Assembly: GCA_015484945.1 (NCBI GenBank) | Contig: WFUO01000064.1 | Coordinates: 1,373 to 65,372 of the forward strand | Origin: Gammaproteobacteria bacterium | GTDB taxonomy: Bacteria > Pseudomonadota > Gammaproteobacteria > WFUO01 | Length of the DNA stretch: 64,000 bases | Direction of reading: 5' to 3' | Part shown: positions 5,284-57,344 of the stretch, piece by piece | Layout of the letters: each line of letters starts with the position of its first letter | Position numbering within the stretch: the stretch's first letter is position 1 | Notes under the pieces: model-generated | The model's database searches: none | Told to the model about the DNA's origin: nothing | What the model saw: the letters and a program-made list of their open reading frames with translations, nothing else | Position numbers and translations under genes: made by a program

Positions 5284-7701
5284 ATGGCCCGTTTCATTCG
5301 CTGGTTCAACGAGATCGGCCTGACTGACGTTGGTCTGGTGGGCGGCAAGAATGCCTCCCTGGGCGAGATGTATCGTGAGCTGACGCCACAGGGCATCAAG
5401 GTGCCAAACGGCTTTGCGATCACCGCCGAGGCCTATCATCATGTATTGAAACAGGCCGGCGCCACAGACACGTTGCGCCGGATTCTCGACGGTCTCGATC
5501 CCGGCGATGTCTCGGATCTGGCCGATCGCGGACGGCGTGCGCGCGAGCTGATTCATTCGGCGCCGATACCCGCGGATCTCGAGGCAGAGATACTGGATGC
5601 ATGGGAGACCCTGCGTGAGGAATATGGCGAAGGCCTGAGCGTGGCCGTCAGATCGTCGGCCACGGCCGAGGACCTGCCCAATGCCAGTTTTGCCGGGCAG
5701 CAGGAGACTTATCTCAATATCAGTGGCAAGGCCGCACTGCTGGATGCCTGCCGGCGTTGTTTTGCCAGCCTGTTCACCGATCGCGCCATTCACTACCGTA
5801 TCGACCAGGGATTCGATCATTTCAGTGTCGGCCTGTCGATCGGTGTGATGAAGATGGTGCGTTCCGATCTCGCCGCCAGCGGCGTGATGTTCTCGCTCGA
5901 CACGGATACCGGTTTCCGAGACGTGGTATTCATCACCGCCGCCTGGGGTCTGGGCGAGACCGTGGTTCAGGGCAGCGTGGAACCGGACGAGTTCTATGTT
6001 CACAAGCAGACCTACGAAAAGGGTCACCGGTGTGTGTTGCGCCGTCATCTGGGCAGCAAGCGCACCCGCATGGTCTATGCCAGTGGTGGCAGCCGTGAGA
6101 CCACGCGTATCGAGCCGGTGCCCGAGCCCGAGCGTCGTCGTTTCTGCATTACCGATGAGGAGGTGCTCAAACTGGCCGGTTACGCGATCGCGCTCGAGCG
6201 CCACTACAGCGACAAGGCCGGTGAGCATCGGCCACTGGATATGGAGTGGGCAAAGGATGGTATCGATGGCGAACTCTATCTCGTTCAGGCCCGTCCCGAG
6301 ACCATAGCTGCCCGGCGCCAGGCTCATGAACTCGAGTACTATCATCTGGACGGGCAGAGTGAGGTGCTGGTGCGCGGTTACGCCGTTGGTACGCGTATCG
6401 CCACGGGACGGGCGCGCTTCATCGCTGATGTCGCGCATTTGCACGAGTTCAGGCCGGGTGAGGTTCTGGTGGCCGAGACCACCACTCCTGACTGGGAACC
6501 GGTCATGAAACAGGCGTCGGCCATCGTCACCGACCGCGGCGGCCGCACCTGCCATGCCGCCATCGTGGCGCGCGAGCTGGGTATCGCGGCCGTGGTCGGC
6601 TGTAACGATGCCACTGAGCGTATCGCCACCGGTGAAGAGGTTACGGTATCGTGTGCTGGTGGCGACGAAGGGAGGGTGTATCGCGGCAAACTGGATTTTC
6701 ATGTCGAGCGTGTGGATCTAGGCGACATCGCCAAGCCAAATACACAGATCATGGTCAACCTCGGCAATCCTGATCTGGCCTTTTCCGTCAGCGCCCTGCC
6801 TGTGCAGGGCGTGGGCCTTGCGCGATTGGAATTCATCATCAACGAGAGCATCGGCATTCATCCGATGGCGCTGTTGCAGCCGCACCGAATCAGCGACCCC
6901 ATGGTGCGCCGGCGCATAGAATCCCGTATTCACGGCTATGACGATGGCGCAGGCTATTTTGTTCAGCGCCTGTCCGAAGGGGTGGGTACCATTGCCGCGG
7001 CATTCTGGCCACGTCCGGTGGTGGTGCGCCTGTCCGATTTCAAGAGCAATGAATACGCCAGTTTGCTGGGTGGCCGTGACTTCGAACCGCATGAGGAGAA
7101 CCCCATGATCGGTTTTCGCGGTGCCGCGCGTTATACCCATCCGGCGTTTGCCGAGGCCTTTGCGCTCGAATGCCGGGCCATGAAGCGGGTACGTGAAGAC
7201 ATGGGCCTGGACAACGTGATTCTGATGGTGCCGTTCTGCCGCCGTATCGACGAGGCGCAACGGGTGCTGGATGCACTGGCAGGAAACGGCCTGCGGCGCG
7301 GCGAGAACGGGTTGCAGATCTATATGATGTGCGAGATTCCCAACAATGTTATCCAGATCGACGCCTTCGCCAAGCTGTTCGACGGCTTTTCGATCGGTTC
7401 CAATGACCTCACCCAACTGACCCTGGGTGTGGACCGGGATTCTGCCATGGTGGGGGCGGATTTCGACGAGCGCGACCCCGGGGTGCTGGAGATGATACGC
7501 CTGGCCATCGAAGGCGCACGGCGCAATGGTCGTCATTCCGGCCTGTGTGGTCAGGCGCCGTCCGACTATCCGGAGGTGGCCGCATTTCTCGTGCGTCAGG
7601 GGATAGACTCGATCAGCCTGAACCCGGATACTGTACTCAAGACCATACGTCAGGTACTCGAGATCGAGAAGGAATCCGGCAGTGAAACCAGTGCCCGATG
7701 A
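5284..7701 (+). CDS. ppsA: Phosphoenolpyruvate synthase
   Basis: From ATG 5284 (AAGGAG RBS) it reads MARFIRWFNEIGLTDVGLVGGKNASLGEMY...TDRGGRTCHAAIVARELGIAAVVG (phosphohistidine swivel)...GSNDLTQL, ~805 aa. Confidence 0.95.
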   Translation: MARFIRWFNEIGLTDVGLVGGKNASLGEMYRELTPQGIKVPNGFAITAEAYHHVLKQAGATDTLRRILDGLDPGDVSDLADRGRRARELIHSAPIPADLEAEILDAWETLREEYGEGLSVAVRSSATAEDLPNASFAGQQETYLNISGKAALLDACRRCFASLFTDRAIHYRIDQGFDHFSVGLSIGVMKMVRSDLAASGVMFSLDTDTGFRDVVFITAAWGLGETVVQGSVEPDEFYVHKQTYEKGHRCVLRRHLGSKRTRMVYASGGSRETTRIEPVPEPERRRFCITDEEVLKLAGYAIALERHYSDKAGEHRPLDMEWAKDGIDGELYLVQARPETIAARRQAHELEYYHLDGQSEVLVRGYAVGTRIATGRARFIADVAHLHEFRPGEVLVAETTTPDWEPVMKQASAIVTDRGGRTCHAAIVARELGIAAVVGCNDATERIATGEEVTVSCAGGDEGRVYRGKLDFHVERVDLGDIAKPNTQIMVNLGNPDLAFSVSALPVQGVGLARLEFIINESIGIHPMALLQPHRISDPMVRRRIESRIHGYDDGAGYFVQRLSEGVGTIAAAFWPRPVVVRLSDFKSNEYASLLGGRDFEPHEENPMIGFRGAARYTHPAFAEAFALECRAMKRVREDMGLDNVILMVPFCRRIDEAQRVLDALAGNGLRRGENGLQIYMMCEIPNNVIQIDAFAKLFDGFSIGSNDLTQLTLGVDRDSAMVGADFDERDPGVLEMIRLAIEGARRNGRHSGLCGQAPSDYPEVAAFLVRQGIDSISLNPDTVLKTIRQVLEIEKESGSETSAR

Positions 7702-17540: not shown

Positions 17541-18156
17541 ATCCGGGGCGGCGCTGGCTGTTGCCAGTATCACGCGGGTCAATTCGACACGGAGCACACG
17601 GAGGCGCGGAGTCACGGAGAAAATGTGGGTGTTCAGACAGGCCTTTCAATCAACACCTCTGTGACTCCGTGGCTCTGTGATCTCCGTGTTTTATTCATGC
17701 CGCCTGCCGGCGTCACCCCGGATTCCGGCCTTCGGCCTGCATCCAGGCTACGTTTCTGTATGTAAACTGCGCTTTCCTCGCGGTCCTGCGCCTTGCCATC
17801 ATCCGCCCGGGATCGGTCAGGGTGTTAATCCGGGGCGGCGCTGGCTGTTGCCAGTATCACGCGGGTCAATTCGACACGGAGCACACGGAGGCGCGGAGTC
17901 ACGGAGAAAATGTGGGTGTTCTGACAGGCCGTTCCATCACCATCTCTGTGACTCCGTGACGTTGTGATCTCTGTGTTGTGTTCATGCTGCCTGCCAGCGT
18001 TACCCTGGATTGCGGCCTTACGGCCTGCATCCAGCCAGGTTACGTTTCTTTCAATCACACCCTCGGTGGCTCCGTGGCTCTGTGATCTCCGGGTTTTATT
18101 TTTGCCGCCTGCCGGCGTCACCCCGGATTCCGAGCTTCACGGCCTTCATTCGCGCT
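17541..18156 (+). repeat. Complex tandem repeat array (287-bp period: two full units plus a third ~105-bp subunit)
   Basis: 17541-17633 is identical to 17828-17920 (93 nt). The following ~125 nt are roughly 85% similar by eye. The subunit ttcaatca..ctctgtgactccgtggctctgtgatctccgtg..gccgcctgccggcgtcaccccggattcc occurs three times, starting at 17645, ~17931 and 18050. Confidence 0.9.
17587..17695 (+). terminator. Long imperfect hairpin (33-nt arms, 37-nt loop) plus U-tract; probable ppk terminator within repeat unit 1
   Basis: The left arm acacggagcacacggaggcgcggagtcacggag pairs with ctctgtgactccgtggctctgtgatctccgtgt, giving 27 Watson-Crick pairs, 3 GU pairs and 3 mismatches. It is followed by ttttatt and begins 50 nt after the ppk stop. 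Confidence 0.5.
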
Positions 18157-19973: not shown

Positions 19974-20888
19974 ATGGGAAATGATGAAGTAAACATACTC
20001 GCTGTTGACGATGATGAGCAGGCACTGGATTTTCTCGTCGAAATCCTGGAGCGTGCAGACTACCGGGTTACATCCTGTTCTGATGGCCAACAGGCACTGG
20101 ACTGTCTGGCAGAAAACCATGATTACGATGTCATCATTGCGGACAGAGCCATGCCCAGAATGGATGGGATGGCGCTGCTAAAGGCAATCAAGGACAACGA
20201 CAGATTGAAAGACATCCCGGTGATATTTCAAACCGGGATGAGTATGGAATCGGAGATTATCGAAGGGATACGGGCAGGTGTTTATTATTATCTGACCAAG
20301 CCATACAAGAAAGAGATACTGCTATCCATCATCCATGCAGCAGTAACCGAAGCCAGAAAGTACAGGGAACTCAGGCAGGAAGTATCTGAACATGCAAAGA
20401 CCCTCAAGACCATGGTGTCAGGTACATTCCGTATTCGCAGACTGGATGAAGCGGAAAATCTTGCATGTACCCTGGCAGAGTTCTATCCGGACCCTGTGAA
20501 AGTGGTAACAGGTGTATCAGAGTTGCTGACCAATTCCATTGAGCATGGAAATCTGGGAATCAGCTATAGCGAGAAGACAGAATTGCTGAAGCAGGGTGCC
20601 TGGAGAGCGGAAATAGAAAAAAGACTGGCAGATGCTGCCTACCGGGACAGATATACCGAAGTCAGAATAGATATGAGTGATGAGAACATTCGATTGATGA
20701 TTACTGATATGGGTGATGGCTTTGATGCAGACAAGTACCTGGATTTCAGTGCTGAAAGAGCAACCCATCTACACGGGCGTGGCATTGCTTTGGCAAAGAC
20801 ATTGAGCTTCGATTCTATAAGGTATATGGGAAAGGGAAACATGGTCATTGCCACAGTCGATAATCGAAAAACTGGAACAGAAGAATGA
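19974..20888 (+). CDS. Response regulator receiver fused to an RsbW/SpoIIAB-like HATPase serine kinase domain
   Basis: The REC domain (ILAVDDDE...[14 protein letters not shown]...FQTG...LTKP) has a canonical Asp, Thr and Lys. The C-terminal GHKL motifs are [11 protein letters not shown] (N-box), DMGDGFD (G1) and [10 protein letters not shown] (G2). Confidence 0.8.
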
Positions 20889-22093
20889 GAAAAATCTGGA
20901 TTCGAAGTTCAGTCATGAAAGAGATGTTTGTACCTATCTCGTCCATCGTGGCGACGAGCTATATTGTTGTCTCGTTTGGGCTGAATAATTTGCCAGTCAT
21001 ATTGATGATGCTTGCGACAGGCTTGCTGTTGTATTCATGGATACGTAACCACAGTAAGATGTCGATAATGGAAAAGAAATCAAAACAAATGAATGAATGT
21101 ATGGATACAGTGGTCCAGAATCTGGAAGCCAGTATTTTTGAGCAGAAAAGAATCCTCAAGGAGCAGGGTGAAAAGATAGATGATGAGGTGGGCGCGATAC
21201 GTGGAATAGTCAGGGATGCGATAGATGGGCTTATGAAAAGCTTTTCTGTCATGAATGAACTGTCCGAAAAACAGAAGAGCATGGTCATTGGCATGCTTCA
21301 GAATTCTGAAAACGATGATGACGTCAATATTTACAGGTTCATGAAGGATTCCGAGGAACTGCTACAGTATTTTGTGGACAATGTTGTTACGACGAGCAAG
21401 GAGAGTGTGGGGCTTTTGCACAAACTGGATGATATGTGGGATCAGATCAATGTGGTCATCGGCATGCTGGACGAGGTTAAAAGCATTGCAGACCAGACAA
21501 ATCTATTGGCGCTCAATGCAACCATAGAGGCGGCGAGAGCCGGAGAGGTTGGAAGAGGGTTTGCTGTGGTCGCTGACGAGGTATCAAAGCTTTCTCACAA
21601 ATCGAATGATTTCAGCAAGGAGATAGGTCAGGTTGTATCAGCAACCATATCAAGTATGCAAACGGCTAGAAAGGTTGTGGACAAACTGGCATCACGCGAT
21701 ATGAATGTCATTTTGGATTCCAAGTCGAAACTTGACAGGATGTCAGGCGTCATAAGGGATATGGCAGGCAAGACAGATGAAAAATTGATGGAGATAACAA
21801 GGATAAACAAGGAAATCAGTGAAGGAGTCAATGTTGCTGTCCAGTCCCTGCAATTTCAGGATATGGTGGACCAGTTAGCAGCGCATGTAAGTAAAAGAAT
21901 CCGGGTTATGTCAGTAATGGGCGAGGCAAAATTGAGCGTGATGGAACATGACGGGGATGTTTGTACCAGGATTCAGAGGCTTGGTGAAATGGAATGCAAG
22001 ACCCGTGACAGACTCAGTTATATTGAATCACAGGTCAGAGGCGCACCGGTCAGTACAGAGGATATGAAGACAGGAGATGTCGAATTGTTTTGA
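20885..22093 (+). CDS. Methyl-accepting chemotaxis protein with a membrane hairpin and no periplasmic sensor or HAMP domain
   Basis: Signalling tip [36 protein letters not shown]. Two adjacent TM helices are separated only by NNLP. Its ATG overlaps the upstream stop (ATGA). Confidence 0.85.
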
Positions 22094-22413
22094 ACAATGT
22101 CGAGGTAATTACTGTGGGTATTAGAGAAGAAAAGGCACCGGATGGATCGTGTGTCATCAAGATAGAAGGAAAATTCGATATCAATGTGCAAGCGGAATTC
22201 CGTCAGGCATATGAGAAATATCCTAGAACAGGTAAATTTGTCGTAGATCTTAAAGACTCGGATTATCTCGACAGTTCGGCCCTGGGTATGCTATTGCAGC
22301 TGCGGGAGTATGCAGAAAACAGGAAGGAACGGGTGATTTTAAGGAATTGCGGGAAGCGTGTTAAAGATATTTTATCTGTTGCCAAGTTGTGCCCGCTGTT
22401 CACGATGGAATAG
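22090..22413 (+). CDS. STAS-domain anti-sigma-factor antagonist (RsbV/SpoIIAA-like)
   Basis: [16 protein letters not shown]...[23 protein letters not shown], with the conserved phosphorylatable Ser in DSSALG. The TTG start at 22090 overlaps the MCP stop. An alternative GTG at 22114 has a GAGG RBS 7 nt upstream. Confidence 0.8.
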
Positions 22414-22641
22414 CATGGTGACAGTAGAATTCAGAGAGGATTCTGGATTTTTTGTATGGCCAGCATATTCTATTCGTCATAACCAGAAGAATCATCCGAG
22501 TCGCATAATAAAAAATATCTTGTTTGCTGATATCCTCTATTCTCCCGTATATTGTGAAGTGATTAAGGGTTTCCGTGGTCTGTAATCACAGGCAAAGCAG
22601 ATTTTTATCATATATCCACTTTATAGTGGGGGTGGGTTAAA

Positions 22642-24225
22642 TCACACTTTGTTTTGTTTCGTGATTCTGACGTCAGACGGCATGTTCCGAATCGCCTTTT
22701 CAATTCTGTCATAGTCCAGGGAAAGCAGCGAAATATCGTCCACTGCATTCGACAGCCTGGTAAACTCGACCATCTTTTTTTGCAGTGTAGTCAACCGCTT
22801 TTCCGGTATGACATTGTCTATCATGTCGCGGATGGCCCTATCACCAAGCATTTCATCATCCTTGTTTGTGAGTTCTGATGCGCCATCGCTGTAGAGGAAT
22901 AATGAGCGACAATCGCTGTTATTTATTTTCCTGGTGACTGGCGAAAACTCGTTTTCACCCATAATCCCCAGGGCGATATTGTCGGAAGTCAGTTGTCCCG
23001 TGATGTGAGTGTTTTTATCGGCAATAAGTACAGGTGGCATACTGGCATTTATTATGTCACTTGTTCCTTCATCCAGATCAACCTGAATAAGTGTGCAAGC
23101 CAGGAAACGGCCGGTAGGCATGAGTGTATGCAATTTTTTGTTGATTTCCATGGCAATGTTTTCGATTGTAAAGCCCCTCGAAACCATGGTATAGAAGATG
23201 TCGGTGGAAGGTACTGCGCCCATGGCGGCAGTCAGTCCATGTCCTGTCAGATCGCCGAAAAGTATTGATAACCTGTTGCCTTCAGGGTTGATCTGGTAGG
23301 CAAAGATATCACCTGAAAAATGTCCAGATGGACGGCACCAGTAATCTATTCCGTCTATGATGCCAGGGCTGCGATCCGTGATGGCATCGAAGATATGCCG
23401 TGCAAACCGCATTTCCTCCTCCATTCTGTTCTGATACATGAGGAGTGAATCATGCATGGCTCTTATTCTGTCCATTGCTGCAATTCTGGTATGCATCAGT
23501 ACTGGGTTGATTGGTTTTACCAGAAAATCATCACCACCGGCTTCAATGCATTGTACGAGCTCATCGTTGTTTTTCAGCGCAGTAATGAATATCACAGGCG
23601 TAAATCTTGTTGTGTCGAGTTTTATCTCTCTGGCGATTTCATAACCACTGATATCGTCGAACACAACACCTGATATCACGATGTCAGGTTTGTGACTGTT
23701 ATAGAAGTCTATCGCCTGTTTACCGGAACTGGCAGTAATGACTTCATGGCCTTCCTGTGACAGGATAAGAGATATATATTCACGGATATTCTCATCCTTG
23801 TCGGCTGCCATTATTCTCAGCTTCTTGTCTGTTTTGAGGTAATGGCCGATATCCTCTATCTCAGGCCTGCCCTTGTCTTCACGTTGGTTTATGGCTTTGG
23901 TGACTTCCCTGCTGATTATATCCAGGTTTCTTGCCAGGTTTTCGTCAATCTCATCGATCAAGGCAGGTGGCGTCTGGAGGATGCCCTTGAGGTAGTCCTC
24001 GAATATTCTCGTATGATCGCTGATATGAGAAAGCCCAAAGGTTGCACATGATCCGGTAAGGCTGTGTATTTCCTTGTGCATTTCTTCTAGGTGTATTGGA
24101 TCACGATCTAGAAGAAAATCATTATGCAAGGCCTGAATCTTCAGTACCCGGTCAGGCAATGATTCAATAAAGCTATTGGTAAGCAGGTTCAGCTTGTCAC
24201 TGAAATCTTTGGGTTTCTTGTTCAT
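22642..24225 (-). CDS. Hpt - receiver-like - PP2C/SpoIIE (RsbU-type) serine phosphatase
   Basis: The N-terminal Hpt carries EIHSLTGSCATFGL. The middle is a REC-like fold (RIMAADKDE...FITA...LVKP). The C-terminal SpoIIE-type phosphatase carries SGDIFAY...FGDLTGHGLTAAMG...LYSDGASE. Confidence 0.8.
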   Translation of the reverse strand: MNKKPKDFSDKLNLLTNSFIESLPDRVLKIQALHNDFLLDRDPIHLEEMHKEIHSLTGSCATFGLSHISDHTRIFEDYLKGILQTPPALIDEIDENLARNLDIISREVTKAINQREDKGRPEIEDIGHYLKTDKKLRIMAADKDENIREYISLILSQEGHEVITASSGKQAIDFYNSHKPDIVISGVVFDDISGYEIAREIKLDTTRFTPVIFITALKNNDELVQCIEAGGDDFLVKPINPVLMHTRIAAMDRIRAMHDSLLMYQNRMEEEMRFARHIFDAITDRSPGIIDGIDYWCRPSGHFSGDIFAYQINPEGNRLSILFGDLTGHGLTAAMGAVPSTDIFYTMVSRGFTIENIAMEINKKLHTLMPTGRFLACTLIQVDLDEGTSDIINASMPPVLIADKNTHITGQLTSDNIALGIMGENEFSPVTRKINNSDCRSLFLYSDGASELTNKDDEMLGDRAIRDMIDNVIPEKRLTTLQKKMVEFTRLSNAVDDISLLSLDYDRIEKAIRNMPSDVRITKQNKV

Positions 24226-26502
24226 TTATGCATGCGCCCTGTTGTATTCCAGTGACTCGGTAATTCTATCGACAATATCCTGGAGTTTCTTCAGCTGAAT
24301 GGCCAGATTGTCTTTGTCGTCAGATTTAATTGTTTTCTCGATATCGATACACAAATCCGTGAGGATCTGGAAGCCCATACCGCCACCACTACCCTTGAGG
24401 CTATGTATGATTTTTCCAAGTTCTTCAATATCTCCACTACGGAAGTGTCTTTGGATATCTTTCATTATGCCCGGAAGACGACTGATAAATCTGTTTACAA
24501 TTTGTTCCAGATCTGGCTCATCATCCAGGATCGTTGATGTAATCGGCTTGTCATTTATTTCATCATCTGGTTTGCTAGATGTATATTTCCTGACAATTTC
24601 ATAAAGTGAATCCTGATCTATGGGCTTGGGTATGAAGTCATCAAAGCCTCGTGAAAGGCAGTCTTCGCGATCTTGTTTCATTGCGTTTGCCGTAATGGCG
24701 ATGACAGGGATATTGTATCCCTTGTTGCGTATCTTCTGCAGGGCATCGAACCCATCCATTACCGGCATGTGTATATCCATTAGCACCATGTCATATTGAT
24801 CATTGATTGTATCAACGGCTTTCTCGCCATTCTCGACTATATCTACAATAGCACCGGTCCTGGTCAGGTAGAGTGAAATAAGACTTTGATTGTCTGGGTT
24901 ATCCTCAGCAAGCAGGATGCGAATTTTCCTGTTCTTGCTGTCAAATACCAGGGGCGATGACGGGCTTTTCAGGGTTTTGTAATTACGTGGATTTGCATAC
25001 AGGAGGCCGTGATTGGTTTCGGTGTTTGCGGCAAACGTCAGTGTGAACGTACTTCCCTTTCCGGGTGTGCTTATCGCTCGTATATCTCCGCCAAGCATGT
25101 GTGCCAGTTTACGAGACAGATGCAGGCCAATTCCAGTGCCACCATAACGTCTTGTTGTAGATGAGTCGGCCTGCGTGAAAGAGTTGAAGACATGTTCAAT
25201 CTGATCTTCAGACATGCCAATGCCCGTGTCTATGACATCTATGGACACAAGGTCATACTCACTATCATATGAGATATTCAATGTTATCGAGCCTGTATCA
25301 GTGAACTTGATTGCGTTGCTCGCAAGATTGATCAGTATTTGTTTGAGACGCAGTGGATCCGAAATGATGGTTTCCGGCAACGGGTAGATGAAATTTATAT
25401 CACATTTGAGGCCTTTTTCTATGGCTTGCAACTCAATGATAGAGTGAGTGTCCTCGATGATATCGAACAGTGATGTCTTGATCGGGTTGGTTTCAAGCTT
25501 GTCAGCCTCGATCTTTGAGAGGTCGAGAATATCGTTGATGATACTTAGCAGGTGTTTTCCGCTTTTTACGATACGTTGGATCGATTCTTTTCTCAAATCA
25601 TCGTCTATATCCGGGTCATTCAATGTCTCTCCAAAACCAATGATTGCTGTCAGCGGTGTGCGTATTTCATGACTCATGTTTGCAAGAAACGAGCTCTTGG
25701 CCTTGGTTGCTGCTTCGAGATTCGCATTGGTTTCCCTGAGAATGCGCATGGCGTCATCCTTGTCTGCATAACTTAGTTTCAGAGCACTTATCATGTCATT
25801 GAAGGACTGCGCAAGGATGCCCAGTTCGTCCATTGAGTAGATCGGAGCAATTGTATCCAGATTGCCTGCCGCAACGTCACGGGATGTCTTGATCAACGCC
25901 ATGATAGGACGCAATGCCTTGATTCTGAAGATGATATATATGCTTATACCCAGAAACAGAACAATCGCTGAATTGATCAGGATATTCCGTTTCAGTGCCG
26001 CATTGGCCATGGCCTCCATTCTTTTCTTGCTCAGACCGATGACCAGTTCACCAATTCTGGTATCATCGTTCATGATTGGAAAGCGCATGGATATTATCTC
26101 CGGGTCAGCATTAACGCGTTTGATTGTCTCGAGTATGGAGCCTGACTTGTATTTCCTTATATACGGGTCATTGTTGTCCAGATAGAGAGTGAGATTGACG
26201 CCTTGATTGGATATGATGACACCATAGACAACATCTTCCTGGCCTGTGATCTCTTCCATGTATTTGTCGAGCGTGAATGCATCGTAGCTCAGAATGGCAT
26301 CAGGACTGACGAGGGAGATGAAGCTTCCCAGCATCCTGCCCTTGTCGATGAGTTGGTTTGTGAGTTGCTGGCGCTCCTTGCGGATGCTGTTGTAGGTCGA
26401 TGTGCTCAGCGTGATCGCAAGGATAAGGATGGTCAGTACCGCGAACTTGACGCCGAGACTGCCGTGCTTGAAGGATGTGATCTTGGCTTTTCTCATTCGC
26501 AA
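24226..26502 (-). CDS. Hybrid sensor histidine kinase (TM-periplasmic domain-TM-HAMP-HisKA-HATPase-REC-Hpt)
   Basis: H-box FLANMSHEIRTPLTAIIGF, GGTGIGLHLSRKLAHMLGG, REC DMVLMDIHMPVMDG, C-terminal Hpt IHSLKGSGGGMG. Its stop codon directly abuts the start of the phosphatase gene. Confidence 0.9.
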   Translation of the reverse strand: MRMRKAKITSFKHGSLGVKFAVLTILILAITLSTSTYNSIRKERQQLTNQLIDKGRMLGSFISLVSPDAILSYDAFTLDKYMEEITGQEDVVYGVIISNQGVNLTLYLDNNDPYIRKYKSGSILETIKRVNADPEIISMRFPIMNDDTRIGELVIGLSKKRMEAMANAALKRNILINSAIVLFLGISIYIIFRIKALRPIMALIKTSRDVAAGNLDTIAPIYSMDELGILAQSFNDMISALKLSYADKDDAMRILRETNANLEAATKAKSSFLANMSHEIRTPLTAIIGFGETLNDPDIDDDLRKESIQRIVKSGKHLLSIINDILDLSKIEADKLETNPIKTSLFDIIEDTHSIIELQAIEKGLKCDINFIYPLPETIISDPLRLKQILINLASNAIKFTDTGSITLNISYDSEYDLVSIDVIDTGIGMSEDQIEHVFNSFTQADSSTTRRYGGTGIGLHLSRKLAHMLGGDIRAISTPGKGSTFTLTFAANTETNHGLLYANPRNYKTLKSPSSPLVFDSKNRKIRILLAEDNPDNQSLISLYLTRTGAIVDIVENGEKAVDTINDQYDMVLMDIHMPVMDGFDALQKIRNKGYNIPVIAITANAMKQDREDCLSRGFDDFIPKPIDQDSLYEIVRKYTSSKPDDEINDKPITSTILDDEPDLEQIVNRFISRLPGIMKDIQRHFRSGDIEELGKIIHSLKGSGGGMGFQILTDLCIDIEKTIKSDDKDNLAIQLKKLQDIVDRITESLEYNRAHA

Positions 26503-26816
26503 TCAGGATGCACCAGTGTTCAGCTGTAACACTGAAAATCATATATTTATCAAAAAATTACAAATACAACTATAGTTTATTGCTTTGTAATCACAATATC
26601 GAGCCTGCCAGACAGGCGTATATGCCATTCACATGCTTCAGTGGTCTGTCTTCGACACCAACGGGGCCATTAGGTACCGTCAGGCAAGTATTTGTATATC
26701 TATCTGATATTACAGACAATAAATACCATGCGAAAAGCATGAGAAATGGTCGGCGCTCGTTCTCATCCTAAACAGTGGATAGGGATCCCGTCTTTAAACG
26801 CCTTGGAGTGTTGTGC

Positions 26817-34630: not shown

Positions 34631-34948
34631 TCAGGCCAGGTAGGACTCGAAGCGGATCAACCGGGTGGCGATCCGGGAAGGGTCGATCTCCAGGGTGCCG
34701 TTGTCGATGGCACGACTGACCTCAGCGACACGTTGCACATCGACCACGGGTTGATTGCGCAATTGCTCTTCCAGCTGGTTGAGCTGGCGGGCGGTTGCGG
34801 TCAGTTCGACCGTATCACCCTGGTTGCCTTGATCGGGTTGCGCCTGCCTTGCCGCATCGTCTGCCTTGCCGGCGACCTTGCCCGCCTCCCCCGACTGTTG
34901 TGCAACCTGCGTGATGGAGCCACTCAACCCATTGATTTCTATAGTCAT
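34631..34948 (-). CDS. flgM: Anti-sigma-28 factor FlgM
   Basis: 105 aa with the C-terminal motif VDVQRVAEVSRAIDNGTLEIDPSRIATRLIRFE, typical of FlgM. Confidence 0.9.
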   Translation of the reverse strand: MTIEINGLSGSITQVAQQSGEAGKVAGKADDAARQAQPDQGNQGDTVELTATARQLNQLEEQLRNQPVVDVQRVAEVSRAIDNGTLEIDPSRIATRLIRFESYLA

Positions 34949-35951: not shown

Positions 35952-36890
35952 GTGGCTAGCATACTGGACAGCGTTGATCAGCGTACAAAACTCGCCGGGC
36001 ACAACCGCCTGGAGCTGCTGATGTTTCATCTGGGTGGCAAGCAGGTATTTGGAATCAATGTCTTCAAGGTGCAGGAAGTCATTCAGTGCCCGCCCCTGAC
36101 CCGGGTGCCCAATGCGCATCCCGTCGTGCGCGGGATCGCCAACATGCGCGGCAAGACCATCACGGTGATGGATCTGGCCATGTGTGTCGGCAAGCGGCCG
36201 ATCGACGAGAAGGAAGCCTTCGTCATCATCACCGAGTACAACCGCAAGGTGCAGGGATTCCTGGTATCGATGGTCGATCGTATCATCAACGTCAACTGGG
36301 ACCAGATTCAGCCGCCCCCCAAGGCTACGGGCAAGGGCAGCTACATGACCGCGGTAACCGAAATAGACTCCGAACTGGTCGAGATCATCGATGTCGAGAA
36401 GGTTCTCGCCGAGGTCGTGGGGACAGATGAGGAGATTTCCGAGGAGCTGAGCAGCACCATTAGCGAGCAGCGCAAGGAGGTCAACAAGATACTCGTTGTT
36501 GACGATTCAAGCGTGGCCCGTAACCAGATCAAGCGCACGCTTGACCAGATGGACTATGAATGCGTGATGGCCAAAAATGGCGCCCAGGCACTACGGATGC
36601 TCAAGGAATGGGCAAAGGCCGGTACGCTTGACGATGAGATCAGTATGATCATCTCAGATGTAGAGATGCCGGAAATGGATGGCTATACCCTGACTACCGA
36701 GATTCGCAAGGATCCCAAGCTGGCTCATTTGTATATTCTTTTGCATACCTCCCTCAGTGGCGTATTCAACAATGCCATGGTCGAGCAGGTCGGCGCCAAC
36801 CGGTTCATTGCCAAGTTCAATCCTGATGAACTGGCCAATGGTGTCATGGCCGCACTGGATGATGTGCAACGCAGGTCAACCGCGGCATGA
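35952..36890 (+). CDS. cheV: Chemotaxis coupling protein CheV (CheW-like domain + receiver)
   Basis: The CheW-like N-terminus reads LELLMFHLGGKQVFGINVFKVQEV..MRG. The C-terminal REC reads ILVVDDSSVARN...ISDVEMPEMDG. Confidence 0.92.
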   Translation: MASILDSVDQRTKLAGHNRLELLMFHLGGKQVFGINVFKVQEVIQCPPLTRVPNAHPVVRGIANMRGKTITVMDLAMCVGKRPIDEKEAFVIITEYNRKVQGFLVSMVDRIINVNWDQIQPPPKATGKGSYMTAVTEIDSELVEIIDVEKVLAEVVGTDEEISEELSSTISEQRKEVNKILVVDDSSVARNQIKRTLDQMDYECVMAKNGAQALRMLKEWAKAGTLDDEISMIISDVEMPEMDGYTLTTEIRKDPKLAHLYILLHTSLSGVFNNAMVEQVGANRFIAKFNPDELANGVMAALDDVQRRSTAA

Positions 36891-36974: not shown

Positions 36975-37814
36975 ATGTCGGTGCCACTGGGAAAAATGCA
37001 GCAAAACGACTATGCGCGGTTCAGGGAGTTTCTGGAGAAGGCCTGTGGGATTCTTCTGGGTGAGAACAAACAATACCTGGTCACCAGCAGGCTCAGCCGC
37101 ATTCTGAAAGAGTACGGGATCAAGGATCTGGGCGAACTGGTAAGCATTATCGAGAAGCCGGGTCAGTCGGATCTGCGTGACAAGGTCATCGAGGCAATGA
37201 CCACCAACGAGACTTCCTGGTTCAGAGACAATCACCCCTACAAGTCGTTACAGGATAGAGTCTTTCCCGAACTGGCCAAGGCGAAAAAGAATCCGATACG
37301 TATATGGTCGGCGGCCTGTTCATCAGGGCAGGAGCCATATTCCATCAGCATGGTGTACCAGGATTTCCAGATAAAGAACCCGGGCCTGCTGACAGCCAAT
37401 CTACAGATCATAGCCACCGATATCTCACCGTCTGTTATAAAGGATGCTTCCAGGGGGCGTTATGACGGGCTGGCCATGGCCAGGGGCATCCCGCCAGAGA
37501 TGAAGGAACGTTACTTCACCAGGGTTGGTGACGAGTGGGAAGTGGATGCCAAGATAAAATCCCGCGTACAGTTCCGGCAGCTCAACCTGCTGCAGAGCTA
37601 TGCCTTGCTGGGCAAGTTCGATGTGATCTTCTGCCGCAATGTATTGATCTATTTCTCGACCGAGCTCAAGCGCGACATCCTGTCGCGTATGGCGCAGGCG
37701 CTCAATCGGGGCGGTTATCTCTTTCTGGGTGGGTCCGAGTCACTGACCGGTATCAGCGACCGCTTCGAGATGATCCGTCATAATGGCGGTGTCATCTATC
37801 GTCTCAAGGACTGA
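36975..37814 (+). CDS. cheR: Chemotaxis protein methyltransferase CheR
   Basis: 279 aa: TNETSWFRDNHPYKSL...IRIWSAACSSGQEPYSISM...FCRNVLIYF. Confidence 0.93.
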   Translation: MSVPLGKMQQNDYARFREFLEKACGILLGENKQYLVTSRLSRILKEYGIKDLGELVSIIEKPGQSDLRDKVIEAMTTNETSWFRDNHPYKSLQDRVFPELAKAKKNPIRIWSAACSSGQEPYSISMVYQDFQIKNPGLLTANLQIIATDISPSVIKDASRGRYDGLAMARGIPPEMKERYFTRVGDEWEVDAKIKSRVQFRQLNLLQSYALLGKFDVIFCRNVLIYFSTELKRDILSRMAQALNRGGYLFLGGSESLTGISDRFEMIRHNGGVIYRLKD

Positions 37815-53553: not shown

Positions 53554-53894
53554 TGCAGACTCTGGTGGATGACGGTCACGACAAGGAGGCCGTTTCGGTT
53601 GGGGGCTTCAGGGAAATTCTCGACCTGGCGCGGCTGATGCGCAAGCTGGCCAGTGAAGGCGACTGGGAAAGCGTGGCTGTCATGCAGCATCGCCGTCAGC
53701 AGATGCTCGAATCCTTCTTCGCTTCACCGGTCGATGGTCATGTTCCCGAACTGGCCGCCGCCATTCGCGAGATGCTGGAGATAGACCGTTTTCTCATCGA
53801 GGCCGGACGCAGGGAGCGGGATGCCCTGTCCGAATCGCTGCAGGGTTTGCGTCAGGGTGCCGCGGGTGTCGCGGCCTATGAACGTCATCGCTGA
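53550..53894 (+). CDS. fliT: Small helical protein in the FliT position (putative flagellar chaperone)
   Basis: 114 aa and overlaps the fliS stop. It is helical (LDLARLMRKLASEGDWESVAVMQHRRQQMLESFF). The assignment rests on position and size, since FliT families are poorly conserved. Confidence 0.5.
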   Translation: MMQTLVDDGHDKEAVSVGGFREILDLARLMRKLASEGDWESVAVMQHRRQQMLESFFASPVDGHVPELAAAIREMLEIDRFLIEAGRRERDALSESLQGLRQGAAGVAAYERHR

Positions 53895-56800
53895 CCCTCC
53901 AGGCGCAGTGACAAAAGAATCTGCCGGCCATCCACTGTTTCCTGTCTTTTTACCTGCAGACCGGCCTGTGCCAGCAGTTTCATCAGTTCGGCCTGCGACA
54001 GATGGTTGGCCATGCCCAGTGCGGTACGGTTCCAGTCTGCAGTCAGCTCGGTGACGCAATAGCTGAGGATGACGGGTAATCCCCAGACCGACAGTTGTTG
54101 CAGAAAGCCGGCCGGGTCATTGAGATATTCCAGCACGCCCAGTACCGTGACCAGGGTGGCGTCTTCCGGGTCTGGATATTCCCCACGGTTGAAATCACAC
54201 ACCCGGGTACGATGGTCTCGTTGCACCACGTCACAGGGCAGGTAGCGGCAGCCCCCGGGCAACAGCGCTTCCAGGGTCATGGCGCCACAACCCAGGTCCA
54301 GCACCACTGCGCCTTCAGGTATCCAGCTTGCCGCAACGGCTGCCCGGCGCGCCCAGTGGGCGCTGAGGTTGTTCTCATCGTTCCAGCGTTCGATATCGGT
54401 TTCGCCACTGGCGAGTTTTGCCTGGCGTCGTTTGGCTTCCGCCATCACGCGCACCTGTTTGTCGATTTCGGTGAAGTTGGCTTTTGACAATTGCAACAGT
54501 CGTTGCCGTTGTTCCCGATCAAGTATCCAGTCAGCGGGGTTTTGCATGACCGCCTCGAAGCGCTCCATCAGTTTGCCGGCGATTTCCGGATCGCTGTCAT
54601 TCAGCGGTTCCGGGAACCCCAGCATCTGCATCAGCCCGCGCACCTTGGGTGTGTTGCTGTCCAGGGCGATCAGCGGCGTGCCGACAAAGGCCGCGGCGAT
54701 ACTGTGGTGGAAGCGGCCCGACAGCAACAAGGCGGCATCGGCGATGACCTGAAGCCATTCTCGTGTACTGCGGGCCTCATGGGTCGTCAAGCCATCGATA
54801 TCCATGTTGGACAGGGCCTGTGACAGACGCTGGTCATCTACAGCGGCATGGGCCCGTGCGCCAGTCAATAGCGTGAAGCGGTAGCCGCGCGGGCGCAGGG
54901 TATTGATGAAATTCGCCAGCATGTGCAGATAATCCTGGTTCCAGCTCACACTGCCGGCGATGACCACATGCCGGGGATCGCGTTGGCGATCGGGCAACGT
55001 GTGCGCATCGATATACAGGGGCAGGCAGTCGAAGGACTGGATCACCGGCAGTCCCAGTTGTTGCAGCAAGGCGGCGCTGACCGGTTCACGGATGGCAATG
55101 CTCGAGACCTGCTGGTAAACCTTCTTGTACAGGGCGTTGCTCAGGGTGTCGGTGATGGCGTCGCGGTCTTCCGGGTAGCAGGAATGATTGACGATATGCA
55201 CCGGTTTGCCGAAGGCCAGCCTGGCGATGTAGGCCAGATAAAGCAGGCGCAGGGCCTGTGTCCCGGTGCCATGCAGGGTGCCTTCACCATTGATGACGAT
55301 GATGTCGGCGTTGGCGATGCTCTTGATCAATTGTTCATTCTGCTTGCAGAAAAGTTGAAAAAAATCCTCCGAGTCGAACTTTTCTATGCTGTCCGGGAGT
55401 GGTGTGATTTTATTCAATAGGCTGATGGCAACGGATTCTATCGCCAGTTCCAGGTTTTCGAGCTGTGCGCGTATGGCGGTGCTGGTGCCGGTGCAGCCCC
55501 AGTGATACCAGTCGGTCGTATCATTGAGAAGCAATACTGTGGGTGATGCATCGGTGATATACCGCTTTCTTTCTGTCCGGGTATTCTGGCAAGATTCCCA
55601 TTGCTCAAGTTGTTTGCCAACTTCATCAAAGACGGGCTGCCATTCTTGTTGCCGAATCTGACGGAACAGTTTTACCGATGGATACCAGGGACTATCGTCA
55701 CGATCCCTGAACCAGCGCCAGTCGGATTGCAAGGGGAGCAATACCCAGCAGGGCTTGCCCAACGCGCCGGCCATGTGCACGGTTGAATTATCAATGGATA
55801 TGACCAGGTCCAGAGCACTGATCAGGGCAGCATGTTCCTCCAGGCTCAAAAGAGGGTCATGTTCATCCCAGTCATGAATGATGATTCCCGTCCGTTCATG
55901 GAATGCTATGAGCTCCTCCTTGCAGTCGCCATACTGCAGATTGATTGCAATGATGTTGGGGAGCTTCAGAATGGGCAACCAGTCTTCCAGCGTGACAGAA
56001 CGTTTGCGCTGGTTGTCATCCGTCGCGCCTCCACGCCAGGTGATACCCACCTTGATACCATTACCCAGACTGGCGAGTCGCTCCTGCCAGAATGTAACCC
56101 GTTGCGGATCCGGTTCAAGATAGCCTGAGTGTGACGGAAAAGCATTGGGAGAAAGACGATATAAAGCGGGCAGGCTGCCACAACCAATGACGAAATCGGG
56201 ATTGTACGTTGTTACAGTATCTGTTTGTAGCGGGGCAGGCAGCACGGTGATATCCGGAAAAGATCGCTGCAATAATGGTGCTAGTCGTGATTCACATTCC
56301 AAAGTGACTGTCGAAGCTTCGGATTTCAGTTGTTCCAGGCAGCCAGCAAACATGATCTCGTCACCGATACCCTGTTCACGGGTGACCAGCACCCGCTTGT
56401 TTATCAGGTTTTCACCCGGATACCAGGGTTTGCAACCGTACCAGTGTGGATGATCGAGATGTCTGACCTTGTGGCGCCATTCATATTCCAGCCAGCCTTC
56501 GTCAAAACGTTGTTCTGTCAGCAATGCCAGGGCCATTTGCCAATGTGCTTCTGCCAATACTCGGTCATTGCCGTTTTCTTGCCGTCGCATGACTTCCGCG
56601 AAGCACGCCATGGCACGCCTGGTATTGCCGGTCAGTTTCCAGGCATTGCCTAGATTGGTGCGTGCTTCGTCGAAATCGGGTTTCAATGCTATGGCCTTTT
56701 CATATGCTGTGATAGCCTGTTCCAGGCGGCCCAGCTTGCGTTCACATTCGCCCAGGTTGTTCCATGCACCGAACAGTCCCGGATCGAGTTCGATGGCCTT

Positions 56801-57214
56801 GAGGTGATGTTTGCGGGCCTGCGGAATGTCACCGGATTGCTGATAGACGACGCCGAGGTTGTCATGTGCCGCGGCCATATTCGGCGCCAGACGCAGGCAG
56901 TCGAGGTAGGCCTTGCGCGCGCCTTCATTGTCGCCTGCTATCTGCCGGAACATGCCGAGCTGGTAGAGGATGTGAGGATTGTGTGGCGAACTGGCATGCG
57001 CGCGTTCCGTCCACTCGAGGGCCTCATGGCTGTGACCCTGGCGCTGGGCGATCTGACCCAGTTGCAGCAGCGCATCGGCCTGTTCGGGGTAGCGTTTCAA
57101 TAATGCGCGCAAGCGTTTGGCGGCCTGTTTGTCACGCCCTTTGCGTTGTTCTTCCACGGCCTGTCGCAGGGCCTTGTGCAGATACTTGTCGATTTGCGCT
57201 GTCTGGCTGCTCAA
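53885..57214 (-). CDS. 1109-aa multidomain enzyme: TPR repeats + GT9-like glycosyltransferase + polysaccharide pyruvyl-transferase-like domain + class I SAM methyltransferase
   Basis: TPR spans aa ~40-230 (ALLQLGQIAQRQG..., AYEKAIALKPDFDEA). The GT9-like domain carries VLVTREQGIGDEIMF...DLVISIDNSTVHMAGALGKPCWVLL. The pyruvyl-transferase-like domain carries IIVINGEGTLHG...LLLSGRFHHSIAAAFVGTPLIAL. The methyltransferase carries VVLDLGCGAMTLE. Confidence 0.8.
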   Translation of the reverse strand: MSSQTAQIDKYLHKALRQAVEEQRKGRDKQAAKRLRALLKRYPEQADALLQLGQIAQRQGHSHEALEWTERAHASSPHNPHILYQLGMFRQIAGDNEGARKAYLDCLRLAPNMAAAHDNLGVVYQQSGDIPQARKHHLKAIELDPGLFGAWNNLGECERKLGRLEQAITAYEKAIALKPDFDEARTNLGNAWKLTGNTRRAMACFAEVMRRQENGNDRVLAEAHWQMALALLTEQRFDEGWLEYEWRHKVRHLDHPHWYGCKPWYPGENLINKRVLVTREQGIGDEIMFAGCLEQLKSEASTVTLECESRLAPLLQRSFPDITVLPAPLQTDTVTTYNPDFVIGCGSLPALYRLSPNAFPSHSGYLEPDPQRVTFWQERLASLGNGIKVGITWRGGATDDNQRKRSVTLEDWLPILKLPNIIAINLQYGDCKEELIAFHERTGIIIHDWDEHDPLLSLEEHAALISALDLVISIDNSTVHMAGALGKPCWVLLPLQSDWRWFRDRDDSPWYPSVKLFRQIRQQEWQPVFDEVGKQLEQWESCQNTRTERKRYITDASPTVLLLNDTTDWYHWGCTGTSTAIRAQLENLELAIESVAISLLNKITPLPDSIEKFDSEDFFQLFCKQNEQLIKSIANADIIVINGEGTLHGTGTQALRLLYLAYIARLAFGKPVHIVNHSCYPEDRDAITDTLSNALYKKVYQQVSSIAIREPVSAALLQQLGLPVIQSFDCLPLYIDAHTLPDRQRDPRHVVIAGSVSWNQDYLHMLANFINTLRPRGYRFTLLTGARAHAAVDDQRLSQALSNMDIDGLTTHEARSTREWLQVIADAALLLSGRFHHSIAAAFVGTPLIALDSNTPKVRGLMQMLGFPEPLNDSDPEIAGKLMERFEAVMQNPADWILDREQRQRLLQLSKANFTEIDKQVRVMAEAKRRQAKLASGETDIERWNDENNLSAHWARRAAVAASWIPEGAVVLDLGCGAMTLEALLPGGCRYLPCDVVQRDHRTRVCDFNRGEYPDPEDATLVTVLGVLEYLNDPAGFLQQLSVWGLPVILSYCVTELTADWNRTALGMANHLSQAELMKLLAQAGLQVKRQETVDGRQILLSLRLEGQR

Positions 57215-57251
57215 TTACATACTCCGTCACTGAAACGTCATCATCGGTTAT

Positions 57252-57267
57252 CTGGCACATTTCATGC
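57252..57267 (+). promoter_or_regulatory. Sigma-54 promoter upstream of the PilZ-like gene
   Basis: TGGCAC-atttc-ATGCA with GG-N10-GC spacing, ~78 nt before ATG 57345. It is followed by the palindrome GCATGCC-G-GGCATGC at 57288-57302. Confidence 0.6.
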
Positions 57268-57344
57268 AGGATATATGCCATACCTTGGGCATGCCGGGCA
57301 TGCAAATGAACTGGGTCCTGTCATACTGAACAAGATGGAGTACG

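Follow-up and report, generated by a model that had tools for sequence, protein, structure and literature searches.

We analysed a 64,000-nucleotide stretch of contig WFUO01000064.1 (the window) from a Gammaproteobacteria bacterium (assembly GCA_015484945.1) and focused on an island of five genes at positions 19974 to 26502 that brings together a serine-phosphorylation switch, a phosphorelay and a chemoreceptor. The forward-strand genes K, M and S encode a REC-RsbW serine kinase, a methyl-accepting chemotaxis protein (MCP) anchored by a membrane hairpin only, and a STAS protein, and the reverse-strand genes P and H encode an Hpt-REC-PP2C phosphatase and a hybrid histidine kinase (HK) of HK-REC-Hpt architecture. 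An initial annotation made from the DNA letters had proposed these five open reading frames (ORFs) together with their domains. We found all five in place and every domain assignment matched by Pfam, and the proposed logic of a kinase, STAS protein and phosphatase combined with phosphorelay domains likewise holds by Pfam. None of the five proteins matched a named NCBIfam equivalog. The ATGA overlap of K and M (20885-20888) is real in the sequence, as is the direct abutment of the H stop codon TAA on the start ATG of P. No sigma factor is encoded among the five genes, and the island contains no cheA, cheW, cheR, cheD or cheB.

M (402 aa; 20885..22093, forward strand) matches only MCPsignal in Pfam (E-value 6.1e-28; core at 21404..21850). 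As initially described, it is anchored by a hairpin of two transmembrane (TM) segments joined by the turn NNLP (hydropathy: TM1 residues 15-33, TM2 residues 36-54; 20927..21046), with no periplasmic domain and no HAMP domain found by Pfam. We modelled M with AlphaFold2 (AF2) as a monomer, although the protein is certainly dimeric, and obtained an all-helical hairpin with about 165 residues per arm (mean predicted local distance difference test (pLDDT) score 75, predicted template-modelling score 0.40). In this model TM2 continues straight into the cytoplasmic helix, which is unbroken from residue 33 to 142, and the last 18 residues (385-402) form a low-pLDDT coil predicted to be unstructured. 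The family consists of compact MCPs of ~390-420 aa with a variable N-terminal membrane hairpin. Across an alignment of 32 homologues the signalling tip is invariant, which fits CheA/CheW binding; SLQF(E/Q)D is a distinctive family motif, and the C-terminal tail, V.Q.SM..G(D/E)(V/I)ELF, is almost invariant. M itself ends in GDVELF, carrying the x[VI][ED]LF peptide that defines the family (tail at 22037..22090). A search of M for the strict methylation-site consensus gave no hit and one loose match.

These features place M in a recognised class. McpA-like receptors, whose role is unknown, have been described as TM-containing proteins that fit no heptad class and have Val as the second residue of the would-be C-terminal pentapeptide (Ortega 2020, PMC7184735), and Supplementary Table 12 of that study lists the tails EVELF (VCA1088), EIELF (SO_2117) and DIELF; the published tails together are EVELF, EIELF, DIELF and DLELF. 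Because M has a TM hairpin, no HAMP and a DVELF tail, it classifies as a McpA-like receptor of the PA0180/VCA1088/SO_2117 type. Its tail conforms to x-[VIL]-[ED]-L-F, position 2 being non-aromatic, and an arm of ~165 residues on each side of the tip fits the conflicting published heptad calls (uncategorised, 44H and 24H). The phylogeny of McpA-like receptors is congruent with that of the F7 CheABR proteins, yet the protein is located in the F6 array (PMC7184735), independently of F7 proteins. Integration into the F6 array is known experimentally for the P. aeruginosa and S. oneidensis homologues only, with no experimental report for VCA1088; in S. oneidensis the F6-array localisation of McpA needs CheA3/CheW3, and McpA overproduction increases swimming.

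The genomic setting of these receptors is also documented. A triad of McpA-like receptor, anti-sigma antagonist and serine phosphatase, of unknown function, closes the ancestral stage 1/2 F7 clusters after cheB; it moved as a unit in stage 2 and was lost as a unit in stage 3 (PMC7184735). According to reviews, a McpA-like receptor is "always" encoded beside the F7 cluster. M departs from this: the 20 kb upstream and the 42 kb downstream of it contain no F7 che cluster. The order of antagonist and then serine phosphatase is nonetheless present, with S 20 nt 3' of M and P, a PP2C protein, convergent to them.

S (99 aa; 22114..22413, forward strand) is a single-domain STAS protein of the anti-sigma-antagonist type (Pfam STAS 3.9e-12, STAS_2 2.9e-12; TIGR00377 1.8e-13, under the family cutoff), and its nearest Protein Data Bank (PDB) entries are 4hyl and 1sbo. 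A start at TTG 22090, overlapping the M stop, had been suggested and is improbable. The likeliest start codon of S is GTG 22114, 20 nt past the M stop, because GAGGT lies 7 nt upstream, the gene-caller product is 99 aa both here and in a related contig (L082) that allows no longer ORF, and the GTG start places the phosphorylatable Ser at position 55 (nt 22276-22278), matching Ser55/56 of BtrV, SypA and HsbA. This Ser55 lies in the DSSALG motif that the initial annotation had singled out, and it is present in the sequence.

We surveyed the receptor family in metagenomes with a scan seeded by a seven-sequence alignment of the family tail. The scan is a sample, not a census, and is biased to tail-bearing receptors; its counts are those among the matches listed, and its percentages are rough, as domains were labelled by phmmer with few queries on raw ORFs and "none detected" may hide divergent genes. 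The scan and the gene-called contexts together gave 76 tail-bearing receptors with readable downstream DNA; a STAS gene came next in 39-41 of them, a gene for a CheY-like protein in 25 and nothing that could be labelled in 8. For the best-scoring relatives of M with readable downstream DNA, a STAS gene came next in all 18. The gap between receptor and STAS gene had a median of 24 nt over 40 pairs, and DSSALGML was present in 37 of 48 receptor-adjacent STAS proteins. The gene after the STAS gene usually encoded a REC-PP2C-RsbW protein, and cheR-cheD-cheB or histidine-kinase genes lay upstream of the receptor. Where contexts had been gene-called, a STAS protein of ~100 aa was encoded immediately 3' of the receptor in all of them (8/8).

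STAS-linked loci with at least 4 kb of sequence on both sides (n = 19) contained che genes in 11 cases and none in 8, and in L085 and L088 the receptor-STAS pair occurred with no adjacent kinase or phosphatase gene. Because the pair persists without kinase or phosphatase and without che genes, the STAS protein is the one constant neighbour of the receptor. The che-less receptor-STAS loci contradict the published "always beside F7" rule, as seen within the fetched loci. The initial annotation had made its proposal depend on conservation of the MCP with the kinase and STAS genes, and had named a consistently co-encoded sigma factor as evidence that would count against it. Co-conservation of MCP and STAS is strongly supported, that of the REC-RsbW family as a whole is not (see below), and no sigma factor is listed in any annotated homologous context.

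Several of these loci deserve separate description. A che-less layout recurs in six of them (L086, L090, L092, L114, L139 and L149), in the order HK (~690 aa), REC-HK (~355 aa), receptor, STAS and REC-PP2C-RsbW, on contigs of 37-38% GC and with receptors that are among the closest relatives of M. The loci with a CheY-like gene next to the receptor (L093, L096, L106-L108, L110, L122, L127, L129, L130, L132 and L142) carry a hairpin MCP of ~400 aa at ~6100-7340, then the CheY-like gene (~125 aa) and a receiver protein of ~820 aa, and the MCP is divergent from a gene set encoding REC, CheA, CheW, a ParA-like protein and a long STAS-like protein. This sister clade is probably the VC1394/F9-type receptor mentioned in PMC7534058. 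In Rhodospira trueperi (L040, 7954-11782) an MCP gene is overlapped by the following gene for a 649-aa REC-RsbW-PP2C fusion, whose domain order differs from the REC-PP2C-RsbW order of proteins of the type of the Shewanella enzyme CrsR; this ties an MCP to a partner switch a further, independent time.

The tail also turned up in a second protein family. CheD proteins of the receptor-containing che clusters end in peptides resembling the receptor tail (GGDVELF, QGGVELF, EGSIELF and SDIELF). They include CheD of L083 (1689-2354), L084 (5068-5724) and L085 (6294-6932) and 17 more in L103-L161. Nearly every CheD of these clusters ends in such a peptide; three have 2-4 extra residues after ELF, and that of L146 ends in the variant GKVDIF. 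When the strict tail motif was sought among all ORFs of the fetched loci, only 74 MCPs and 10 CheDs ended in it. A C-terminal docking peptide present on both CheD and McpA-like receptors would suggest that the two bind one partner.

K (304 aa; 19974..20888, forward strand) is a response-regulator serine kinase (Pfam Response_reg 2.7e-26, HATPase_c_2 3.5e-10). Its REC domain (19995-20333) aligns canonically to CheY, with phospho-Asp57 at 20142-20144, and its RsbW-type HATPase_c_2 domain (20499-20855) has the N-box and the motifs G1 (DMGDGFD) and G2 (HGRGIA). Catalytic and receiver residues of K are invariant in 27 homologues; in the kinase domain these are E183, N187, H191-N193, D245, G247, G249 and G268-G270. 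The closest solved structure is PDB 9qih, "SenB", a full-length match at E 5e-19. K belongs to a large family of stand-alone REC-RsbW proteins (3747 matches), and it looks recruited rather than recently split off, because whole K shares 45-50% identity with stand-alone REC-RsbW proteins and its kinase domain only 27-36% with CrsR-type kinase domains. On the same figures we rejected recent fission of a CrsR-type gene as its origin.

A survey seeded with K gave a different picture from that seeded with the receptor tail. The 80 genome loci of K homologues were mostly beside histidine kinases, and an MCP gene lay directly downstream of the K homologue in none of them. We accordingly rejected the broad REC-RsbW family as a marker of MCP-STAS triads (MCP in 0/80 loci, STAS in 3/80). 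Only the closest relatives of K are receptor-linked, namely those in L082 (71% identity) and L173/L174 (50% identity).

P (527 aa; 22642..24225, reverse strand) comprises an Hpt domain, a degenerate receiver and a PP2C phosphatase domain (SpoIIE 1.2e-29, Response_reg 6.1e-21, Hpt 1.7e-8). The Hpt domain (23932-24177) has His54 at 24064-24066, and the PP2C domain (22714-23280) has the motifs GDLTGHG, SDG and DDIS, with residues D306, D325, G328-G330, D447, D496 and D497 invariant in the family alignment. The chain ends 23 residues past the PP2C domain and has no kinase domain. In its REC domain (23482-23814) an alignment placed Gly186 (23668-23670) at the position of CheY Asp57, and the pocket DD reads DK, within ADK; the receivers of K, of H and of eight CrsR-type proteins are canonical and keep the Asp. 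It had been supposed that both receiver proteins of the island are fed by the hybrid kinase and its Hpt. For P this fails: with Gly186 in place of the phospho-acceptor Asp, its receiver should be unable to accept phosphate in the ordinary way.

An exhaustive HMMER search found the full Hpt-REC-PP2C architecture in ~25 cluster representatives. Among 24 aligned proteins the His54 of the Hpt domain never varies, and three lack the receiver Asp: Gly replaces it in P and in P0246, the representative nearest to P (40% identity), and His in the distant P0295. P0246 (locus L170) is convergent with a 99-aa STAS gene in the same layout as in the window. Because P and P0246 have the Gly in common at 40% identity and P0246 is STAS-paired, the pseudo-receiver is best read as a maintained trait of this sub-lineage and not as damage. 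Other family members adjoin a SulP-STAS transporter or histidine kinases; in L171 (1423-4690) a canonical-Asp Hpt-REC-PP2C protein is convergent with a SulP transporter carrying a C-terminal STAS domain, a hint that the STAS domains of transporters are the targets of some members of this phosphatase family. P also matched the REC-PP2C-RsbW proteins of L083 and L084 (E 8.8e-53 and 5.7e-59; PP2C identity 28-35%), and by these alignments its REC-PP2C part is clearly homologous to CrsR-type proteins, the N-terminal Hpt having been gained.

H (758 aa; 24226..26502, reverse strand, with an alternative start ATG at 26496) is an unorthodox hybrid sensor kinase with HAMP, HisKA, HATPase_c, Response_reg and Hpt domains by Pfam. 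Hydropathy places TM1 at residues 14-36 and TM2 at residues 173-197, and these enclose a periplasmic domain of ~135 aa (25987-26394) that has no Pfam match. All three phospho-sites are present: His278 (25669-25671), Asp576 (24775-24777) and His700 (24403-24405). H is BarA/TorS/ArcB-like by NCBIfam and, because its scores are under the equivalog cutoffs, is not an orthologue of any named kinase. It is the only recognisable sensor of the island.

The island stands out from its surroundings in base composition, as initially reported. Its GC content is 0.448 against 0.577 in the remaining window, and GC at third codon positions (GC3) ranges over 0.47-0.53 across its five genes and over 0.58-0.72 across the flanking ones. 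The report that flanking repeats and mobility genes are missing also holds: no tRNA genes, flanking direct repeats or Rfam families were found around the island, and no integrase or transposase is among the called genes. The initial annotation took the composition as consistent with horizontal acquisition. The deviant composition bears this out, but any transfer is old, for the 3.8-kb contig L082, from another sample, shows collinearity with the window over a stretch that opens at the end of ppx, takes in K, M and S and reaches into P. It has the gene layout K-MCP-STAS followed by a convergent PP2C gene; amino-acid identities to the window in the main alignments are about 75, 69, 63, 76 and 57%, and whole-protein identities are 71% for K and 56% for M. 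The ppx of L082 has a GC3 of 0.61, against 0.47-0.49 in its island genes.

Because L082 has the same site, the same order and the same GC step, the island already stood beside ppx in the common ancestor of two well-diverged organisms, and we rejected recent horizontal transfer. Absence of the island from the same site in relatives would be expected of a horizontally acquired island; L082 carries it, and no dedicated search for an island-lacking relative was made. Contigs with a GC content of 37-41% carry several of the closest relatives of M and K, which fits an origin of the island in a low-GC lineage; horizontal acquisition is thus plausible but old.

Upstream of the island lie recA, ppsA, alaS, an aspartokinase gene, ppk and ppx, and downstream slt, a thioredoxin-like gene and relA/spoT, followed by a polar-flagellum region with flgN-flgM-flgA, cheV, cheR, flgB-L, fliC, fliD, an atypical PilZ gene, fleQ, fleS and fleR. 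The anti-sigma-28 gene flgM (34631..34948, reverse strand; Pfam FlgM 9.7e-15) is ~8 kb from the island. The initial annotation stated that no cheA or cheW lies nearby. There is indeed no cheA in the 64 kb, but cheV (35952..36890, forward strand), whose product is a CheW-REC protein, and cheR (36975..37814, forward strand) stand 9.5-11 kb downstream, at the head of the flgB-L cluster; Pfam and phmmer searches with Che proteins of related loci found no other che genes in the window. From cheV, cheR and the polar-flagellum regulon it follows that the host clearly has a flagellar chemotaxis system, which M could join.

Within the island, the stops of S and P face each other across a convergent intergenic region of 228 bp (22414..22641, GC 0.377), presumably the end of both transcription units; a terminator scan called no convincing intrinsic terminator in it. 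A consensus scan gave one weak sigma-70-like candidate promoter for the H-P operon, TTGTGA-16-TATAGT (26569..26596, reverse strand), ~70 nt upstream of H, and promoter-like sites in the island region were not enriched over shuffled sequences. Elsewhere in the window, the ppk-ppx intergenic region (17541-18138) contains two 192-nt direct repeats (17541-17732 and 17828-18019, 92% identical) and a third copy of a 91-nt repeat core (18048-18138), which have no tRNA or Rfam match and give spurious ORFs with identical N-termini. Between fliD and fleQ, on the reverse strand, lies a gene for a 1109-aa protein with TPR, pyruvyl-transferase and methyltransferase domains, followed by that of the 190-aa atypical PilZ (tPilZ) protein, both within 53885-57917.

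Homologous switches have been characterised in S. oneidensis (CrsR and CrsA) and in P. aeruginosa (their homologues HsbR and HsbA). CrsR, of REC-PP2C-kinase architecture, works with CrsA as a partner switch by which RpoS is sequestered and released; RpoS is bound by the kinase domain of CrsR/HsbR. HsbA binds FlgM in P. aeruginosa (PMC6482189), and the cyclase HsbD is a further HsbA partner, the HsbA~P-HsbD complex localising polarly. The HptB-HsbR-HsbA system, with HsbA binding FlgM or HsbD, is thus a precedent for a relay-driven STAS switch with non-sigma partners. The initial annotation had considered the MCP the only candidate target of the island's switch, and this was too narrow: RpoS, FlgM and HsbD are trans targets of homologous switches, and flgM itself is encoded 8 kb away.

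Based on the intact motifs, we predict that the ~135-aa domain of H detects a cue in the periplasm and that phosphate passes from His278 to Asp576 and on to His700. The Hpt of H, and possibly also that of P through His54, would then phosphorylate Asp57 of K, whose receiver is the only canonical terminal receiver in the island. By homology, the RsbW-type domain of K would phosphorylate Ser55 of S and the PP2C domain of P would remove the phosphate, and the relay would thereby set the phosphorylation state of S. P may be constitutive, may be controlled through its Hpt and pseudo-receiver, or may dock by its Hpt onto the receiver of K, an arrangement that, speculatively, would rebuild a CrsR-like three-domain enzyme non-covalently.

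The phosphorylation state of S would decide its binding partner, as in the CrsA/HsbA systems, and in the reading to which we commit, speculative as this step is, one of these partners would be the co-encoded receptor M. M would be expected in the flagellar (F6) chemoreceptor array, like its characterised homologues, and S could serve as a cytoplasmic "ligand" of M or could fasten M to the array, so that motility would respond to the phosphorelay. Targets in trans may be served in parallel, for example sigma-S held by the kinase domain of K and FlgM bound by S. The F7 Che proteins would be replaced in the island by the dedicated phosphorelay. We consider the chances evenly balanced that the island is a free-standing, split variant of the unit of McpA-like receptor, CrsA/HsbA-type STAS protein and CrsR/HsbR-type enzyme, working by this mechanism. 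We lean slightly towards a functional coupling of receptor and switch in one direction or the other. That the STAS protein acts on the receptor is a tentative proposal, to which we give rather less than an even chance. Direct, phosphorylation-dependent binding of S to M, possibly through the x[VI]ELF tail, with M as the input port to the F6 array, we consider somewhat unlikely.

Several observations weigh against this proposal. Published work on the studied systems reports no contact between receptor and switch; the roles it assigns are RpoS, FlgM and HsbD for the homologous switch and ordinary F6 chemotaxis for the homologous receptor, with no link between the two. Deletion of mcpA in S. oneidensis leaves swimming unchanged. 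The adjacency of receptor and STAS genes could be synteny inherited from the F7 cluster. A STAS gene lies within 10 kb of a K homologue in only the three loci out of 80 mentioned above, even with the family hidden Markov model, and the substrate of K in the island is assumed in a family that is usually without STAS in cis. The receptors followed by a CheY-like gene (25 of the 76 listed) form a second clade that has the same tail and no STAS gene next, and the ELF tail is therefore not specific to the STAS partnership. The roughness of the receptor scan, described above, counts on the same side.

The strongest alternative is that the island encodes an ordinary CrsR/HsbR-type switch with trans targets only. 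K would sequester sigma-S or another factor, S would toggle between K and FlgM or a cyclase, H would supply the signal, and M would be an independent array member that travels with the switch only through common descent from the edge of the F7 cluster. The RpoS binding of the CrsR/HsbR kinase domain, the FlgM and HsbD binding of HsbA, the position of flgM 8 kb from the island and the lack of any reported receptor-switch contact all agree with it, as does the behaviour of the receptors themselves: Shewanella McpA acts as a chemotaxis receptor in complexes with CheA3 and other 40H receptors, and P. aeruginosa McpA/CttP has been reported to mediate chemotaxis to trichloroethylene. However, synteny alone can hardly explain a contiguity of ~24 nt between receptor and STAS genes at ~27-40% receptor identity, nor the persistence of the pair apart from che genes (8 of the 19 well-flanked loci listed) and from kinase and phosphatase (L085 and L088). 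A receptor with neither sensing domain nor HAMP has no obvious input of its own, and the phylogeny of McpA-like receptors follows F7 CheABR despite a location in the F6 array (PMC7184735). We regard this alternative as a real possibility, though not a probable one.

A further alternative reverses the flow. M would be the input, reporting the activity state of the array to S, for instance through a tail that is accessible in one state and concealed in the other, with H as a second input, and the switch would turn array activity into a slower decision on a sigma factor, FlgM or cyclic di-GMP. The receptor-STAS linkage speaks for this as much as for S acting on M. The unit occupies the output end of stage 1/2 F7 clusters, behind cheB, and the Hpt-REC-GGDEF gene that follows the module in L173, together with the action of HsbA~P on HsbD, suggests outputs other than motility. 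On the other hand, we know of no precedent for a chemoreceptor signalling to a STAS protein, and the dedicated sensor kinase in the island makes a second input less necessary; we consider this direction improbable. Still less credible, and in our view very improbable, is that the island is the decaying remnant of a horizontally acquired F7 cluster with no coherent function, as its foreign composition, missing che genes and Asp-less P receiver might suggest, for none of the five ORFs is disrupted, the remaining catalytic motifs are all preserved, gene order and tight coupling are kept in L082 at 56-76% amino-acid identity, and the Asp-to-Gly receiver is common to a 40%-identical STAS-paired homologue and hence a maintained state.

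That receptors of this type exist and are linked to an antagonist and a serine phosphatase is already known, as are STAS switches without a sigma factor and switches fed through Hpt proteins. New are the unit free of che genes and wired to histidine kinases, the STAS protein as the one constant neighbour of the receptor, and the split-enzyme design with an Hpt/pseudo-receiver/PP2C protein, the last being a small addition to the known wirings of phosphorelays to Ser/Thr switches. McpA-like receptors are an acknowledged puzzle, having co-evolved with F7 proteins while located in the F6 array, with no sensor domain and with a conserved tail of unknown role. The island and the loci related to it show that their constant partner is a small STAS antagonist and not the F7 machinery, and that the unit of receptor, STAS, kinase and phosphatase can be detached from che genes, can be rewired to ordinary histidine kinases and exists in a naturally minimal form.

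Nothing is overturned by this. The question of what McpA-like receptors do, and of how F7-type signalling reaches the F6 array, is sharpened and narrowed to a testable protein pair, with simpler backgrounds available that have no adjacent F7 genes. If S does bind M, this would explain the purpose of McpA-like receptors and the crosstalk between F7 and F6: a partner switch, driven by a relay here and by F7 elsewhere, would steer the F6 array or be anchored to it. Should synteny alone keep receptor and STAS genes together, what the island encodes is one more stress and motility switch of the CrsR/HsbR kind.

Finally, we compared the island with characterised systems; its likeness to CrsR/CrsA and HsbR/HsbA is drawn through loci of the same architecture and through published descriptions. 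The closest is the S. oneidensis unit at the edge of che1, a stage-2 F7 cluster, with SO_2117 (McpA), SO_2118 (CrsA) and SO_2119 (CrsR). There, as here, a McpA-like receptor adjoins a STAS protein and a receiver-controlled serine kinase/phosphatase, and the receptor tails are EIELF and DVELF, respectively; L083, L084, L086 and L087 have the same order of receptor, STAS and REC-PP2C-RsbW as S. oneidensis. The island differs in having no adjacent che genes and a dedicated hybrid HK-Hpt protein. REC, PP2C and kinase domains share one polypeptide in CrsR and HsbR, whereas here they are split over K and P on opposite strands, and the phosphatase receiver, phosphorylatable in CrsR and HsbR, has no Asp in P. 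Cluster III of V. cholerae, a stage-1 F7 cluster, likewise has a receptor of this type (VCA1088, tail EVELF) with an antagonist and a phosphatase downstream, and VCA1088 is not needed for the F7 array. Unlike cluster III, the island has no F7 cluster near it, a condition also found in the 8 che-less loci among the 19 well-flanked ones listed.

The resemblance to HptB-HsbR-HsbA that the initial annotation drew stands, the matches of the REC-PP2C part of P to REC-PP2C-RsbW proteins bearing it out. In P. aeruginosa, and as predicted for the island, hybrid kinases feed an Hpt and then a receiver-controlled PP2C/kinase that sets the phosphorylation state of a STAS protein; neither system has a sigma factor in the operon, and the outputs of the Pseudomonas system are motility versus biofilm. 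The PAO1 hsb locus lies near cheR, cheV, flgA and flgM, and the window likewise has flgM-flgA and cheV-cheR nearby. HsbR, however, is a single three-domain protein with a working receiver, HptB is a separate small Hpt protein where the island has Hpt domains fused to both H and P, and no MCP adjoins hsbA in P. aeruginosa.

More distant systems use the same chemistry for other ends. SypE-SypA of Vibrio fischeri and BtrU/V/W of Bordetella also have a STAS-only protein whose phosphorylation at Ser55/56 depends on an RsbW-type kinase and on a PP2C phosphatase, both subject to control by a receiver, with a target that is unknown or not a sigma factor; SypE, though, has kinase, REC and PP2C in one chain, and both systems lie in polysaccharide or type III secretion loci with no chemoreceptor. 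RsbU/V/W and SpoIIE/SpoIIAA/SpoIIAB of Bacillus share the enzymology and folds (HATPase_c_2 kinase, STAS substrate and PP2C phosphatase) but have a sigma factor in the operon, no receiver or Hpt control and no chemoreceptor.

A parallel to the divided enzyme comes from the metagenomic loci L173 and L174, which encode a receptor with the tail GEIDLF, a STAS protein, a separate REC-PP2C protein and a separate REC-RsbW protein 50% identical to K. In contrast to the island, their genes lie on one strand, the phosphatase has the canonical Asp and no Hpt, and the next genes encode an Hpt-REC-GGDEF cyclase and CheC/CheX-like proteins and not a hybrid HK. In L173 (4223-9817), and in L174, the Hpt-REC-GGDEF gene, whose product is reminiscent of HsbD, the P. 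aeruginosa cyclase partner of HsbA~P, precedes genes for a CheY-like protein, a CheC/CheX-like protein and histidine kinases, and upstream in L173 are a Wadjet-like JetD gene and a PIN/MazE pair. The split-enzyme design recurs beyond the window, in L082, L170 and L173/L174.

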